DNA of 64,000 bases, taken from positions 10,703-74,702 of IMG/VR virus record IMGVR_UViG_3300030060_006882. One strand, written 5' to 3'. Positions within the stretch are counted from its first letter, which is position 1. Each line of letters begins with the position of its first letter. This document shows positions 5,325-45,813 of the stretch, in pieces. This DNA is from a virus. The translations under genes were made by a program, and so were the position numbers. The notes under the pieces are model-generated. The model saw only the letters and a list, made by a program, of their open reading frames with translations. It was not told the origin of the DNA and made no database searches.

Positions 5325-5563
5325 AGAAGATCCGTTTTTATTTCAGCTAGATCAGATCGTATTTCCAACCGAAAAGATTCTGCTGTGTCTAATCTTGAAT
5401 CTAAATCTTCTAACTCTTTTTCTATTGTATCTAATCTGTAAATGTATTGAGTGTCCTTAGATGCGGCAGCCCATACAAAATTTCCTATGGTCAAAAACCA
5501 GCCAACTAAAATTGCAATTATAACCAAATGGCTTTTAGCCTTATCTTTTGCTTCCTGTGTCAT
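5291..5563 (-). CDS. Single-TM, coiled-coil membrane protein (XhlA/holin- or i-spanin-like)
   Basis: N-terminal TM helix followed by heptad repeats. Confidence 0.55.
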   Translation of the reverse strand: MTQEAKDKAKSHLVIIAILVGWFLTIGNFVWAAASKDTQYIYRLDTIEKELEDLDSRLDTAESFRLEIRSDLAEIKTDLLWIRKELEQGR

Positions 5564-7587
5564 TTATTTTTCTTTCGCTTTTTCAATAAACGTTCGGGAA
5601 TAGTCATATATGGAGTGTCCAAAATGTATCTCAGTAACAACTCATCGGTGCCTTCTTCTCCTGCACCATGTTCTTCTTTAATAGGGACTTTATTATCTCC
5701 CCTATTAGCAGATTTACTTCTTACTCTTGTGTTTGACTTACTGTTATTTAGGGGATTATGATCTTTATGATCTATATCTTTTCCGTCGCCTTTACTAACT
5801 TTTCCATTTTTTTCTGCTTCTCTACGAGCACCATTTCTTCCAGCACGTCTTTTCTTTTGCTTTTCTGTGCCATGATACTCATCGTATTCTTTTCTATAAT
5901 TACGTTCTTTTCCTTCACTCAATCTAAGAGTAGAACTATCGTAATACTCAACATCCTTTTCCACATCAACATAGAATGTTTTATTTCCTACAGAAATCTT
6001 GGTAAAGTCACCATTAGAAATCGAACCAACCGCATCTAGATTAATATTTCTTATTATGATACTGTTTGCGGATAAATCGAACAAAGCAAGTAGTCCAACA
6101 AGAACAGATGGGTATTGACTCATGTGTTGTTCGAAAAATAATTTGGCATCATTTTGATCTTCCATTAAAGAAAAATATTCGTTTAAAGAAGGATATGGTT
6201 GCATTCCAACTGGATTTTTCTGTTTAGCTGCTGCTTCGTTTTCAGGTGGAGTTGTAGGTGCCGCTCCATTTACCAAAAGATCGTACATCTGATCGAATGG
6301 CGTTGTAGGGGAGGAAGGAGTAAGTCTTAATTTAACTTCAGTTTCACCAAGCAAACTATTAATTGTAATTTCTGTCAGTGGAGTAAATCTTAAATTTGTT
6401 CCATCTCTTGAACTACTCATCAATGTGTTTGCAACCGCAGGAGATCCCTCGTCAAATTTTCTTCTCCCTGTGAGAGATTGTATTACCAAAAACCTTTCTA
6501 CTTTATCGTTAGATTGTAGTATAGATTCTATAGAAGAAATTAATTCTTTCTTTACATTTTCTCCATTTGACAAAACATATTTCTTTTGAATATTTTCTTT
6601 ATTATCAAAATTGGTTGCAACATTAATTATTTTTTGTTTCAATTTATCAAGTTGCTTTTTTACTTTTTCATCTGATTCTAATGTCTCTACAAGTTCCTGT
6701 AGAGTGATCGAGAATAAAGCGTTAGCTTCTTCGTCTGTTATTATCTTTATCTTATCATGAATTATAGAAACTGTATAGACATTACCCTTTTCATCTTGAA
6801 CTATTAAATCTGTGTTTGGAGTATCCACGTCTCCTACAACTTTTTTAAATTCTTTAGATACAGGGTAAGTCTCTTCTGCAGTCGTAACTGTAAAATTACC
6901 TTTTACCTTTTCGCCTATTTGTTGGTATGCTCTAATAGAAGCGTCCATTAGAGTTTGACTTTGACCAAAGAACTGACTGGCTGTAGATGGATCTACTTGC
7001 TTTCCTCCAGTACTGTTAGCAACCAATGATATACCTCTGGATAAGGACTCTGGTGCATGATCCCAGTCTGGGTAAGTAGAGTTTGTGTCTTTTCTTTCTA
7101 CTCCATCTTTGGGATAATCATAATGATCACTTCTGACTATTTCTGTTTTTCCTCGTTTTTTCTTTTTAACAATACCCAATAGTCTATTGGATGTCTTTGA
7201 TGCTTCAAATTCATCTTGAGTTGAGATTTCTTGTGCTACATTAGGAGTAACTTCTGGCTTTGGTGGTTGACCAGGTGCCTCACCATACAACAATTCATGT
7301 TTGTTTGAATTAAAATCAGATTTAGGAATCAAGCGTATTTTGCCATCTTGATTAGTCTTAACTATGATGACACGCTTCCACGGACTAGATCCTTCTGTCT
7401 CTTTTTTCCTGTCTACCTGTTTTCTAGCCTTATCTACTTCCTTCTGTCCACCACCTTTAGATCTGGCTTTCTGAACAGCTCTTTCCTTTTCGACTTGATT
7501 GGCTTTTGTGAACTCCAAAAGCTCACCCTCGAATGACGAGTCAATCCAGTTCTGATCTTCCATGAGTTTTATAGTTTTGTTTTTCAT
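5560..7587 (-). CDS. Large late protein with C-terminal HNH endonuclease domain
   Basis: RNYRKEY...GDGKDIDHKDHNPLNNSKSNTRV...NRG HNH-like motif; TATACATA upstream. Confidence 0.7.
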   Translation of the reverse strand: MKNKTIKLMEDQNWIDSSFEGELLEFTKANQVEKERAVQKARSKGGGQKEVDKARKQVDRKKETEGSSPWKRVIIVKTNQDGKIRLIPKSDFNSNKHELLYGEAPGQPPKPEVTPNVAQEISTQDEFEASKTSNRLLGIVKKKKRGKTEIVRSDHYDYPKDGVERKDTNSTYPDWDHAPESLSRGISLVANSTGGKQVDPSTASQFFGQSQTLMDASIRAYQQIGEKVKGNFTVTTAEETYPVSKEFKKVVGDVDTPNTDLIVQDEKGNVYTVSIIHDKIKIITDEEANALFSITLQELVETLESDEKVKKQLDKLKQKIINVATNFDNKENIQKKYVLSNGENVKKELISSIESILQSNDKVERFLVIQSLTGRRKFDEGSPAVANTLMSSSRDGTNLRFTPLTEITINSLLGETEVKLRLTPSSPTTPFDQMYDLLVNGAAPTTPPENEAAAKQKNPVGMQPYPSLNEYFSLMEDQNDAKLFFEQHMSQYPSVLVGLLALFDLSANSIIIRNINLDAVGSISNGDFTKISVGNKTFYVDVEKDVEYYDSSTLRLSEGKERNYRKEYDEYHGTEKQKKRRAGRNGARREAEKNGKVSKGDGKDIDHKDHNPLNNSKSNTRVRSKSANRGDNKVPIKEEHGAGEEGTDELLLRYILDTPYMTIPERLLKKRKKNK

Positions 7588-7616
7588 AAGAAATCCTGAT
7601 AATAATTGATCTACTT

Positions 7617-7624
7617 TATGTATA
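7617..7624 (-). promoter_or_regulatory. Late promoter variant TATACATA
   Basis: One mismatch to TATAAATA; recurs at 8839 and 60594 in similar positions. Confidence 0.55.
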
Positions 7625-7626
7625 AT

Positions 7627-7655
7627 AAAAGGGGAGCAGGTTTCCCTGCTCCCCC
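7627..7655 (-). terminator. Rho-independent terminator
   Basis: GGGGAGCAGG-GAAA-CCTGCTCCCC followed by TTTT. Confidence 0.85.
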
Positions 7656-7658
7656 AAC

Positions 7659-7747
7659 ATAATACTACTTAACCGGTAGGTAAAGGGTCTTTGCTGCTGG
7701 ATCACCCCCCTTCGTGTGCAATAAAACAATTACCGGCGAAGTATTAT
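7659..7747 (-). ncRNA. Putative structured RNA with anti-16S-tail loop
   Basis: Outer stem ATAATACTT..CCGGTA / TACCGG..AAGTAGTATTAT; loop contains AAGGGGGGTGATCCAGCA; terminator follows. Confidence 0.5.
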
Positions 7748-7844
7748 TACTTCACTTATAATAAGTGTATAAATTGAACTTGGAGGAAGGAATTTCGAAT
7801 TCAGTAAAACTTTTATTAAACATATTAGGTTTTCCCTTCATTCT

Positions 7845-7852
7845 TATTTAGG
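7845..7852 (-). promoter_or_regulatory. Late promoter variant CCTAAATA
   Basis: TAAATA core immediately after the upstream gene. Confidence 0.45.
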
Positions 7853-7864
7853 ATAAATTACTTT

Positions 7865-8209
7865 TCATTCGGGTCTTTTTAGCAATTTATACCCTTTGTG
7901 TTGTTTTCTTTCACCACGCAAGGTTCCGTACATTGCTGCCTTATTTAGGTTATTTTCTCTGCAAAATCTAGAAAAAACCTCTATAAGTTCAATTTTCTTG
8001 TCTGGAGTCTCTACAACATATTTGTCAGTATTGTTAGAATAATCTACAGATTCCTGCCATTTTGTCGTTCTTCCAAATCTGTCATTTTGGACAAACTCCC
8101 CTCCAAACATTTCCACAAAGTTCTTTCTGTGAATAATTTTTCTGGCATCTTCATTAACCCTAACCCATGTAGGGGAATTTATTTTATTCACTTCTTCTTT
8201 TACAAACAT
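7865..8209 (-). CDS. Small protein with NUMOD1/HTH-like DNA-binding C-terminus
   Basis: FCRENNLNKAAMY...GERKQHKGYKL resembles homing-endonuclease DNA-binding modules. Confidence 0.55.
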   Translation of the reverse strand: MFVKEEVNKINSPTWVRVNEDARKIIHRKNFVEMFGGEFVQNDRFGRTTKWQESVDYSNNTDKYVVETPDKKIELIEVFSRFCRENNLNKAAMYGTLRGERKQHKGYKLLKRPE

Positions 8210-8210
8210 T

Positions 8211-8762
8211 TCATTTCTCCATATCTTTTACTATTTTAAATAACATCTTACAAATATAATATGAATCTACAATATCGGTTGCTGGATTGTTGAGTGTTTT
8301 CATATTTAAGACACTTACTAAATTGACACCAGTTTCTTCTAAAAAAGATTCATACATTTCGGTTTTTCCTGCATTTCCCTTTCCAGTCGCATATTTCTTG
8401 ACCGCAGATGGTGCTATAGTTTCTAATGGGACACCACGCTGATATAACTTATATTTCAAAACACCAGTATTTTCTGCTATATTGAACACCCTACCAGTAG
8501 CACCATAGGCATAATTTTCTATTGCTACTTGATCTGAAAAATCACACACCTCTACTGCCCATGATGAAATGCTGTCATATCTTTCCTCTTCTGAGTTATA
8601 TTCCTCAAACGATTTTCCATAAAATCTACCCGAGAATACCTCAGAATATTTCTTTTTGTTGGACAAATAATGAAATATACAATTCGTATAGCTCCATTCA
8701 TCTCCGACATGAATGCATATTGCAGGGGAAGTTAAACTATAATCAATACCAGATAATACCAT
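8211..8762 (-). CDS. RuvC-like Holliday junction resolvase
   Basis: GIDYSL, VAIE, VKKYATGKGNA.K and DIVDS catalytic motifs. Confidence 0.85.
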   Translation of the reverse strand: MVLSGIDYSLTSPAICIHVGDEWSYTNCIFHYLSNKKKYSEVFSGRFYGKSFEEYNSEEERYDSISSWAVEVCDFSDQVAIENYAYGATGRVFNIAENTGVLKYKLYQRGVPLETIAPSAVKKYATGKGNAGKTEMYESFLEETGVNLVSVLNMKTLNNPATDIVDSYYICKMLFKIVKDMEK

Positions 8763-8771
8763 AATATAAAT

Positions 8772-8802
8772 ATATAGACACCCCGTAGAGAGGTGTCTAT
8801 AT
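8772..8802. terminator. Hairpin/terminator
   Basis: ATATAGACACC-CCGTAGAGA-GGTGTCTATAT inverted repeat. Confidence 0.65.
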
Positions 8803-8833
8803 TAACAGTGGTGATCCAGCAATCTTTTCTGTA
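8772..8833 (-). ncRNA. Putative ~60-nt small RNA carrying 16S-3'-tail mimic TGCTGGATCACC
   Basis: Lies between TATACATA (8839-8846) and a hairpin; no credible ORF. Confidence 0.4.
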
Positions 8834-8867
8834 TACACTATGTATATAAATTTTATCTTAATAAAAT

Positions 8868-8892
8868 AGGGGTGTCTACAGTAGACACCCCT
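8868..8892 (-). terminator. Terminator of the RNR-porin operon
   Basis: AGGGGTGTCTAC-x-GTAGACACCCCT followed by ATTTT on the minus strand. Confidence 0.75.
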
Positions 8893-8905
8893 TCATTTAT
8901 ATATC

Positions 8906-9154
8906 TCAATCACCGAAATCTACACGATTCAATCGTTGAGTACGAACTGGACGGTCTACACCAACGGCACGAACACCATCATCCCAGAGTCCTGCGATAG
9001 ATCGAGCACTCCAAGAAATCCCTCTAGCTGAATGTGGAAGAATTGCAAAAGCAATCAACCAAACTCCAACAGTTACACCAAAAACTCTCTTATTGAACCA
9101 ACCACACGGACATTGATTTGCACAAGGTGCTTTACAATCATTTTTACTACTCAT
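8906..9154 (-). CDS. Small membrane protein with Cys-rich N-terminus
   Basis: AAGGAG SD before ATG at 9154; CxxxCxxxCxC then a TM helix. Confidence 0.6.
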   Translation of the reverse strand: MSSKNDCKAPCANQCPCGWFNKRVFGVTVGVWLIAFAILPHSARGISWSARSIAGLWDDGVRAVGVDRPVRTQRLNRVDFGD

Positions 9155-9177: not shown

Positions 9178-10206
9178 TCAAAATTCTAACTGTAACTGAA
9201 CTCTGGCAAGGTACTCACCCGAACTAGTGGAAACATTCCAACCAGTTTCGCCAGTGTTCCAACCCGCTGCAATTCCATTCAGTGCATAACCAAAGTCTGC
9301 ACCAAGTTTCACATTAGCGTTAAAAAAGTAATTAAATCCACCAGTAATAATACTAAGCTGTTCAGATGTAGTATCAAGTTCACCGTACTGATATTCAACA
9401 TATGGTTGAAGCTCTTTGGTGATATGATATCCTAACTGGCCAGTAGCACCCCACTGTCTACCATTGTCATATTCAGCAGAGACATAAGCACCGTCAAGAG
9501 TCAGATCACCCACGGAGATTCCCGCGTCGGCAGTCCAAGTCCAGTAAGTTACATCTTGCTGATTGTATGAAATGGCAGTTCCGAGGTTCAACCAGTTGAA
9601 CACGTCCCAATCCAAACGTCCAGTGGCAGCGTAACCGTTTTGAACACCTGCACCATTTGCAGTATCAAAACCATCACTGTATGCCGCACTAGCAGTAAGT
9701 GGACCAAAATCATGAGACAACTGAACACCTTGAGAACGTCCTTGTCCAAAAGTACTGGAAACAACGGATCGTTCAATTCCGAGAATGTTAGTCTGGGAAA
9801 CAAGAACTTCCTTCATGAAGGGAGTCTTGAACTGTCCAAACTTAAAGTTTACACTCTCAAAATCAGAGGATGCCCATGCATCCTTCAGCGAAAAGTCACT
9901 ACCTTCGCTCCATTGTCCACTGACTTTGTAATTCCAGTTGTAAACCGAACCAGAAAGAATAATTCTGACACGAGGAACACTGAAACCGTAATTTGCATCG
10001 GTATCCGAACCGCTGCTGTATGAGTACCGAGTCTGCAAGAATCCACCAACATTTAATGTTGCAGGCAAATCGTTAGCAAACAAAGTACTTCTGGATGATG
10101 CGTCCATCATGACGTTATTTGTAATGTCTTCGATGGACGAGTAATCGTTAGCAGCAGCAACTCCGCTTACCGCTAATGATACAATAATAGCACTGATCTT
10201 TTTCAT
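9178..10206 (-). CDS. Outer-membrane porin, OprO/OprP (phosphate-selective)-like
   Basis: Signal peptide; GFLQTRY, R.RI.LSG, LKDAW and GQFKTPF motifs; amphipathic strands; terminal QLEF. Confidence 0.8.
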   Translation of the reverse strand: MKKISAIIVSLAVSGVAAANDYSSIEDITNNVMMDASSRSTLFANDLPATLNVGGFLQTRYSYSSGSDTDANYGFSVPRVRIILSGSVYNWNYKVSGQWSEGSDFSLKDAWASSDFESVNFKFGQFKTPFMKEVLVSQTNILGIERSVVSSTFGQGRSQGVQLSHDFGPLTASAAYSDGFDTANGAGVQNGYAATGRLDWDVFNWLNLGTAISYNQQDVTYWTWTADAGISVGDLTLDGAYVSAEYDNGRQWGATGQLGYHITKELQPYVEYQYGELDTTSEQLSIITGGFNYFFNANVKLGADFGYALNGIAAGWNTGETGWNVSTSSGEYLARVQLQLEF

Positions 10207-12219: not shown

Positions 12220-12247
12220 ATTATATAGAAAAAAATATTAATGTCAA
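12220..12247 (-). promoter_or_regulatory. Sigma70-like promoter TTGACA-N16-TATAAT
   Basis: Perfect boxes upstream of the RNR gene. Confidence 0.7.
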
Positions 12248-45805: not shown

Positions 45806-45813
45806 TATTTATA

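Follow-up and report, generated by a model that had tools for sequence, protein, structure and literature searches.

A conserved RNA element with a copy of the 16S ribosomal RNA tail, and its probable partner RNA, beside a RuvC-like gene of uncultured marine T4-like phages

The DNA considered here is a 64-kb stretch (the window) of the 74.7-kb viral record IMGVR_UViG_3300030060_006882 of IMG/VR, a record with an estimated completeness of 41%; the window has a GC content of 35%, and T4-type late boxes (TATAAATA) are in use in it. The subject is a pair of minus-strand elements, El2 (8846-8768), which carries a copy of part of the 3' region of 16S ribosomal RNA (rRNA), and El1 (about 7764-7659), which is complementary to 16S rRNA; a 114-amino-acid (aa) open reading frame (ORF) in their neighbourhood is called ORF-B. 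Judged from its sequence, El2 is a real, conserved and previously undescribed RNA element of uncultured marine T4-like phages. El1 and El2 probably pair, and the pair may affect the phage's dealings with ribosomes.

All genes surrounding the two elements lie on the minus strand, as do the features given in this paragraph. First in transcription order is a class II ribonucleotide reductase (12198-10228), followed by a 342-aa ORF and a 91-aa ORF; these upstream genes end at an intrinsic terminator at 8892-8868 (stem GGGGUGUCUAC/GUAGACACCCC, tail AUUUUAUU; scored with 11 pairs, six of them GC, and the tail ATTTTATT), which insulates El2 against upstream transcription and which scores as a terminator on the plus strand too. 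It is present upstream of El2 in some relatives (L003, L222, L224) and not in subfamily 2. Downstream of El2 come a RuvC-like Holliday-junction resolvase (8211-8762; phrog_159 at E 5e-33, and Pfam RuvC), whose AUG in the window has no Shine-Dalgarno (SD) sequence ahead of it, then ORF-B (7865-8209), which is homing-endonuclease-derived DNA-binding-like and always upstream of El1, and El1 itself (7659-7764). An intrinsic terminator (7630-7655) ends the RuvC/ORF-B/El1 unit. Directly past it lies the late box TATACATA (7624-7617) of the next gene (5560-7587), which encodes a 675-aa protein with an HNH end and stands directly after El1 and its late box; the sole recognisable part of that protein is the C-terminal HNH endonuclease domain (residues about 560-633), and the gene 3' of El1 apparently varies between relatives.

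The closest RuvC proteins of cultured phages are those of Pelagibacter phage Mosig (Kyanoviridae) and Caulobacter phage Cr30 (43-44% identity), and a DNA search of the phage database gave no close relative. RuvC is in a syntenic position: it follows the nrd genes in Mosig as well as in the window and a further gene arrangement (L332 type) described below. A transposon reading, with inverted repeats around a RuvC-fold gene, was dropped because of this synteny; the repeats moreover lie inside RNA structures bounded by promoter and terminator.

El2 opens with P1, a T4-type late-promoter-like box (TATACATA, 8839-8846, minus strand) that matches TATAAATA at seven of eight positions and has its predicted start at A8832, about 6 nucleotides (nt) downstream of the box. 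Relatives of RuvC were drawn from viral contigs and metagenome contigs and yielded 24 distinct El2 and 21 distinct El1 sequences, and 22 of the former were aligned. A box TATA[ACT]ATA or a variant one letter off (AATACATA, AATATATA or GATACATA) is aligned in all 22 and reads TATAAATA in L228, L230 and the L247 type. Within the window the TATACATA sites are intergenic and gene-sense in three of three cases, and we infer that P1 acts as a late promoter. A MotA-box (middle-promoter) reading of TTGCTGGA with TAATAT was rejected, the partner copy being without TAnnnT at the right spacing; the wider phage group is not known to use the MotA/middle-promoter mode.

The predicted 65-nt El2 RNA (8832 to 8768) has a fold of two hairpins at -22.9 kcal/mol (z = -5.5 relative to shuffles), and single-sequence folds gave two hairpins, with GCUG unpaired in stem-loop 1, for 22 of 22 El2 sequences. 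Stem-loop 1 (8805-8832, minus strand, 28 nt, ACAG...CUGU) displays the 16S-tail-like motif, the 12-mer UGCUGGAUCACC (8810-8821, minus strand), which contains an 11-nt copy of the 16S 3' region and is the complement of El1 at 7695-7706. Across 22 distinct relatives the core GCTGGATCA is invariant and the flanks vary, with double changes in the stem (ACAGA/UCUGU against AUAGA/UCUAU, and AGAGAU/AUCUCU against GGAGAU/AUCUCC); only 76% of the stem-loop 1 cells pair in one fixed register because the register shifts between subfamilies. Subfamily 2 has the 3' part of the motif paired within the stem of El2 itself, and only GCUGGAUC is free.

Hairpin 2 (8772-8802, minus strand; AUAUAGACACC...GGUGUCUAUAU) has 13 pairs in the window, five of them GC, and a stem base of A/U. 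In the alignment of 22 sequences pairing is seen in 99.6% of its cells, and five of its 12 pairs have changes in both partners; none of 500 shuffles reached the observed covariation score, which collapsed when the partners were slid. An interruption of the U tract (AUAUAUUUAUAUU) makes the window hairpin no more than terminator-like; the L247-type hairpin was not scored as a terminator, and the L332-type hairpin, with GGCGGGGGUUUUCU, was scored as an intrinsic one. The 10-mer GGGGTGTCTA and TAGACACC are common to hairpin 2 (8772-8802) and the upstream terminator (8868-8892), which together look like a duplicated hairpin; in relatives the two differ from each other. No candidate for a peptide ORF was found within the 65 nt of El2. 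Rfam 15 returned zero matches for the entire window, and for 7500-9000 at E <=10 it returned chance-level matches only, far below the gathering score. The original prediction had described a tiny transcription unit here, made up of TATACATA at 8846-8839, TGCTGGATCACC at 8821-8810, a closing hairpin at 8802-8772 and an insulating terminator at 8892-8868, and each of these was found on the minus strand at that position. As a conserved RNA element it is supported by the late-type box and the compensatory changes; its closing hairpin in the window resembles a terminator.

The 3' base of hairpin 2 includes an invariant CTATATA (8771-8777, minus strand), 5-9 nt ahead of the RuvC AUG. Relatives without El2 have CTAAATA, CATAAATA or TATAAATA 4-7 nt ahead of that AUG, and therefore CTATATA may be the late promoter of RuvC itself (P2), giving a nearly leaderless message. 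On that reading El2 would be a separate unit, in keeping with the original prediction; on the opposite one it would be the leader of RuvC. Elsewhere in the window, TATAAATA boxes at 45813, 47705 and 56702 (minus strand) sit 0, 2 and 5 nt before an ATG, which suggests leaderless or nearly leaderless late messages in the window phage; this layout of TATAAATA and ATG is also seen in RuvC relatives.

The partner element, El1, is a structured RNA with AAGGGGGGUGAUCCAGCAGC, the complement of the 16S 3' tail. It is laid out as a long-range stem (at least six doubly changed pairs in the alignment), a conserved GCACAC, the core AGGRGGUGAUCCAGC, a C-rich strand that pairs with GGRGG, the terminator and the late box of the next gene. 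The core is unchanged while RuvC diverges to 51%. Single-sequence folds of El1 place AUCCAG in a loop (mean unpaired probability 0.84-0.99) and GGRGG in a paired strand (0.02-0.34). In 21 of 21 sequences there is no start codon 3-15 nt past the SD-like core, which is therefore not the ribosome-binding site of a gene. One El1 segment, CUUCGCCGG, has two mutually exclusive pairings, with an upstream GUGAAG (small hairpin) or with a downstream CCGGUUAAG (long-range stem), and by these models El1 may switch between two conformations; the GUGAAG duplication is also present in relatives.

ORF-B has no recognisable nuclease motif; its AlphaFold model (pLDDT 77) has I-HmuI as best PDB match, and its C-terminus matches NUMOD-like or homing-endonuclease DNA-binding domains. 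In the L247 type a lysine-rich tail replaces the C-terminal helix-turn-helix, with both RNA motifs intact. Homologues of ORF-B in L139 and L194 have a plain terminator and no El1. In L108, L139 and L194 the gene that precedes the homologue is not RuvC but another one.

The motif common to the two elements, GCTGGATCACC, matches the 3' end of 16S rRNA: a genuine 16S fragment (L101) reads ...CTGCGGCTGGATCACCTCCT on its sense strand, and a real 16S fragment reads ...GCGGCTGGATCACCTCCT. El2 is identical to the 16S 3' region over 11 nt in all sequences, and agrees with it at 12-13 of 14 positions (GCUGGAUCAYCUCY) in most relatives. The anti-SD end, which the 16S copy was said to lack, is indeed missing in the window (CACCAC), and most relatives retain it in a degenerate form (CACCUCU or CAUCUCU). 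With at most one mismatch the 12-mer occurs exactly twice in the 64 kb, at 7695-7706 (plus strand) and 8810-8821 (minus strand), where shuffles lead one to expect 0.10 matches (2 of 100 shuffles reach two); the 11-mer has only the same two copies in the entire 74.7-kb record. Since one copy of the 12-mer is on the plus strand and the other on the minus strand, the copies are mutually reverse-complementary, and the minus-strand copy is, as had been claimed, the exact complement of the El1 loop at 7695-7706, where AUCCAG lies in the predicted loop.

Such a repeat could act as DNA, the two GCTGGATCACC copies being operators through which ORF-B represses its own operon. The homing endonuclease I-TevI represses at its own late promoter; the ORF-B model is closest to I-HmuI and its C-terminus is of the NUMOD-like or homing-endonuclease DNA-binding kind, the El2 motif and the P1 box upstream of it are 10-25 bp apart, and DNA binding is indifferent to orientation. 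We nevertheless judge operators to be quite unlikely: the L247 type keeps both motifs without the helix-turn-helix end of ORF-B, the ORF-B homologues of L139 and L194 occur without El1, each motif is found in the loop of an RNA hairpin with compensatory changes at its sides, only on the transcribed strands do the deviations amount to G.U, and operators give no reason for a 15-nt match to 16S.

We examined whether El1 and El2 are complementary in relatives as well. The antiparallel El1:El2 run comprises 11-17 contiguous pairs in 17 distinct genome pairs, and the cells of the 14-nt zone divide into 203 Watson-Crick, 31 G.U and 4 mismatched; when the opposite strands are read instead, the G.U cells become A.C and the runs drop to 9-12, a wobble pattern that depends on about three positions. 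In the predicted loops El2 exposes GCUGG, or more fully GCUGGAU(CA), and El1 exposes AUCCAGC. Whole-length duplex energies, which were dominated by spurious long pairings, were discarded, and run counts and hairpin-only cofolds were used; the predicted net binding of El2 stem-loop 1 to the El1 core is -12 to -24 kcal/mol. These features support an El1/El2 RNA-RNA pair built on the 16S tail, as judged by complementarity and fold.

It is extremely improbable that the plus strand is the functional one, with TATAAATA at 8765-8772 (plus strand) driving an RNA that contains GGUGAUCCAGCA and would be a second anti-16S RNA. The box, a perfect one, shares bases with the RuvC start codon and is directed into El2, and a plus-strand terminator is also scored at the 8868-8892 hairpin; however, the box is not conserved (relatives have TAAAAATA or TACAAATA, and it is not kept in those with a RuvC identity of 79% or less), promoter boxes and terminators face the RuvC-sense strand in all three architectures, and the wobble pattern fits the sense strand only.

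The two elements occur together. Both were present in 24 of 24 metagenome loci in which RuvC is at least 54% identical and both flanks are covered, with GCTGGATCA[CT]C upstream of RuvC and [AG]GG[AG]GGTGATCCAGC about 160 nt past ORF-B on the same strand; seven further loci show one element only, and all of these are cut by a contig end. RuvC relatives at 54% identity or less have neither El1 nor El2, L251 excepted, nor were they found in Mosig and a complete 147-kb relative; the best cultured RuvC matches (Mosig and Caulobacter phage Cr30) lack El1 as well as El2. A covariance model of El2, run against 87 sources, matched only the window and L003-L005, and nothing in distant RuvC relatives, L108 or Mosig. 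For the RNA-RNA pair of the original prediction, co-occurrence of both 12-mers and compensatory changes within them had been named as signs to look for: the pairing is supported by the co-occurrence in all 24 covered loci, by the 11-18 contiguous pairs and by the loop-exposed cores, and compensatory changes in the 12-mers are absent, the core being invariant and the changes that are seen being one-sided and wobble-compatible only.

A third architecture (L332 type; contigs G007 and G008) separates the elements. Here RuvC is 51% and the upstream 342-aa ORF 38% identical to that of the window, and between the two genes lies an El2-like stem-loop with a 10-bp stem, a loop containing GACUGCUGGAUCACUUUCG and a clear intrinsic terminator. 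At a distance of 7.2 kb from El2, the opposite strand carries El1 together with an ORF-B homologue; each element has a terminator on its own strand, and the two RNAs are complementary over 18 contiguous positions. Because the pair is kept when unlinked, action in trans is favoured, and pairing of the 5' and 3' ends of one mRNA is ruled out as a general mechanism, since the elements are on opposite strands 7.2 kb apart. By its layout the L332 arrangement fits a small independent El2 unit that would act in trans. L108 had been considered as a case of El1 without El2, and is uninformative because the contig stops about 600 nt past El1, before the expected place of El2 (at 7.2 kb in sister contigs, on that side).

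The place of El2 beside RuvC raises the alternative of a private pair in which the ribosome has no part. El1, produced along with ORF-B, would pair with El2 as a leader or attenuator and so control termination at hairpin 2 or the translation of the SD-less RuvC, and the likeness to 16S would be historical. That El2 is directly upstream of RuvC in three of three architectures, even with El1 7 kb off, and that hairpin 2 abuts the RuvC start, speak for this, and icaR provides a precedent for pairing between 5' and 3' untranslated regions (UTRs) (PMC3868564). It leaves unexplained, however, the 15 nt of El1 that agree fully with the 16S complement and show neither drift nor covariation over deep divergence; the pairing also ends at least 5 nt before hairpin 2, and RuvC may own the promoter CTATATA downstream of El2. 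On balance we find the private pair rather unlikely.

Very improbable, in our estimate, is a role of El1 as adaptor, an SD in trans that would pair by its GGRGG with the anti-SD of the 30S subunit and by its AUCCAGC with the El2 loop in the RuvC leader, bridging the two, and would bring ribosomes to the SD-less RuvC start. Although the window-type RuvC is without an SD, subfamily 2 frees only GCUGGAUC and leaves El1 GGAGG available, and no more than about 4 nt are common to the two pairings, a strong terminator stands between El2 and RuvC in the L332 type, the L247-type RuvC has its own promoter and SD, and a full El2:El1 duplex would cover GGRGG too.

The explanation that we favour, and to which we give an even chance, is that El2 is a mimic of the 16S tail that pairs with El1 and competes for it with the tail itself; it is the earlier titration idea minus the toxin-antitoxin and timing claims, and in that reduced form we hold it to be about evenly balanced. 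The sequences show conservation, co-occurrence, fold, loop exposure and complementarity; we infer transcription, duplex formation and ribosome contact, as well as the direction and effect of regulation. El2 and El1 would first touch loop to loop (GCUGGAU with AUCCAGC), the pairing would then extend over the SD-like GGRGG strand into a duplex of 11-18 bp, and the duplex would mask exactly that stretch of El1 which is able to pair with the 16S 3' tail in 30S subunits. El2 would thus be a tail mimic, a rival of the ribosome for El1, acting in trans; in the window type it is perhaps on the same late transcript as El1 too. The rest of the intergenic regions with El1 and El2 has diverged. The 16S tail is universally conserved, and the frozen core of El1 and El2 would be explained by this invariant outside partner, because a private pair would be free to drift.

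Several points weigh against the competition of El2 with the 16S tail. The predicted binding of a 16S tail oligonucleotide to the El1 core is -22 to -30 kcal/mol, and for 14 of 15 genomes the tail is predicted to be tighter on El1 than El2 is; El2 would thus have to be in excess, or kinetically favoured, for simple titration to work. In the predicted folds a stem hides GGRGGUG, the El1 segment that matches the tail of 16S where it is accessible, and the 16S bases matched by the exposed AUCCAGC are at the foot of helix 45. True two-sided covariation between El1 and El2 is lacking because the core never changes, and the gain of El1 and El2 may be one evolutionary event, or two at most. El2 invariably adjoins RuvC, which could mean regulation of RuvC instead of El1, and the homing-endonuclease-like DNA-binding protein ORF-B is encoded beside El1, which makes a reading at the DNA level possible. 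Among the sequencing runs searched for the window sequence, no RNA run was listed.

An antidote or switch function of the pair would be plausible. The specific form given in the original prediction, in which El1 is a harmful ribosome-blocking RNA and El2 a separate, protein-free antidote transcript in a toxin/antitoxin-like or timing switch, we consider unlikely. All the support for pairing counts here as well, El2 is equipped with a promoter box of its own and with a terminator-like hairpin (a clear terminator in the L332 type), and a cellular RNA with a 17-nt extended SD, rreB, strongly binds 30S subunits (PMC5711450). However, nothing points to harm by El1 or rescue by El2; in the window type both depend on late-type boxes, El1 would be made from the same late operon, and nothing indicates a difference in timing; El2 is predicted to lose to the 16S tail in competition; the SD-like strand of El1 is sequestered in its own fold; and there is no toxin ORF. 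Neither an ORF for a toxic peptide bound by an antisense RNA, as in type I toxin-antitoxin systems, nor tandem repeats with an endoribonuclease gene, as in type III (ToxIN-like) systems, was found at El1 and El2, which have two inverted copies and RuvC-like and homing-endonuclease-like neighbours. Similarly doubtful is a protein-free circuit of three parties in which El1 would clamp the host 16S tail and its anti-SD, El2 would set the amount of free El1, and the phage would tune on which messages ribosomes can start late in infection, for example SD-led messages against leaderless ones such as that of RuvC.

Known systems resemble parts of this arrangement. Small-RNA sponges and target mimics, such as the prophage-encoded anti-sRNAs (antagonists of small RNAs) of enterohaemorrhagic Escherichia coli, are RNAs that copy the target of another RNA and could soak up that RNA, and El2 likewise has the sequence that the natural target has; what is copied in this case is not an mRNA but the 3' tail of 16S rRNA, a likeness drawn from sequence. 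In kissing-loop antisense control (CopA/CopT of plasmid R1, RNA I/RNA II of ColE1, hok/sok) both partners carry complementary loop bases and pairing could reach the stems; the complementary bases of El1 and El2 are likewise unpaired in both loops by prediction, whereas the kissing-loop pairs come from opposite strands of the same DNA and El1 and El2 are encoded at separate places. STAB-SD, in the cryIIIA leader of Bacillus thuringiensis, is an SD-like sequence and presumed binder of the 16S 3' end that does not serve initiation; El1 also has an SD-like sequence unused for initiation, but STAB-SD is in a 5' leader and stabilises its own mRNA, whereas El1 is at a 3' end with a dedicated mimic as partner.

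In the icaR mRNA of Staphylococcus aureus a UCCCCUG in the 3' UTR pairs with the SD in the 5' UTR (PMC3868564). As in icaR, an operon has complementary SD-like and anti-SD-like motifs at its two ends, and one mRNA is possible in the window type, given read-through of hairpin 2; in the L332 type, with opposite strands 7 kb apart, one mRNA is impossible and pairing must be in trans. The roles are reversed relative to icaR, with the tail mimic 5' and the SD-like sequence 3', and the latter serves no gene; the paired 5' motif is anti-SD-like and is not the SD of a regulated gene, RuvC being without one. The complementarity is 11-18 nt and runs past the SD into GAUCCAGC. The small mRNAs rreB and rreR of Alphaproteobacteria have an extended SD of 16-17 nt, and rreB binds 30S subunits (PMC5711450). 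El1 resembles rreB in being complementary to the 16S 3' end over an unusual length; the SD of rreB is followed by a small ORF, whereas El1 has no start codon (21 of 21), and no mimic like El2 is described for rreB.

In our literature search, no paper came up that describes a phage RNA with complementarity to the 16S tail, or a tail mimic. To our knowledge, phages are known to take over translation by proteins, and not by an RNA that binds the mRNA-docking tail of the ribosome or by an RNA that copies the tail. The locus is a compact, testable case of two short RNAs with sequences fixed by an outside partner, the 16S tail, kept together in three gene arrangements; the phages are abundant in the ocean and are relatives of SAR11 phages. 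Should the pairing and the ribosome contact be true, they would amount to a new control of translation initiation and a natural pair of parts, tail binder and tail mimic, for engineering; if the pair controls only the resolvase gene, it would still be a clear case of trans-encoded loop-loop RNA control in T4-like phages.

Wider motif scans returned mostly unrelated sequence. The exact 17-mer TTGCTGGATCACCACTG had 14 matches in a scan of viral contigs, all in unrelated coding sequence. AGGRGGTGATCCAGC had more than 117 matches, for the most part sequence coding for GGDPA, ordinary extended SDs before a start codon, or real 16S; only those in L099, L133 and L108 belong to the El1/El2 family. Three matches that at first looked non-coding (L128, L139, L194) actually read ...QGGDPAKTLWENP..., and four others that looked non-coding (L112, L214, L100, L117) have no El2-like partner in their records, the extra CTGGATCAYC sites there being coding. 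Jumbo-phage contigs of 200-316 kb hold structured-looking non-coding stretches with AGGRGGTGATCCAGC (L200, L211, L146, L199, L311, L315, L316; L165/L172/L178; L102/L104), one group of which has a GTACAGG...CCTGTAC closing stem and is about 115 nt long. An Rfam scan of L200, L211, L146, L165 and L102 gave no match, and no non-coding El2-like partner was found in the loci of L200, L165, L102, L311, L315 and L316. In L117, a complete 96-kb viral contig in which no partner motif was found, positions 9905-9929 (minus strand) read GCACAC...AGGAGGTGATCCAGC inside a cluster of 15 tRNAs on the same strand, and this element may be a small stable RNA processed with the tRNAs.

In the window itself, sigma-70-type promoters (TTGACA or TTGATT, a 17-nt spacing and CTATATAAT) were seen at 12228 (minus strand), 35300 (minus strand) and 2146 (plus strand). 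One of them lies just 5' of the ribonucleotide reductase gene, and they are probably the early promoters of the window phage.

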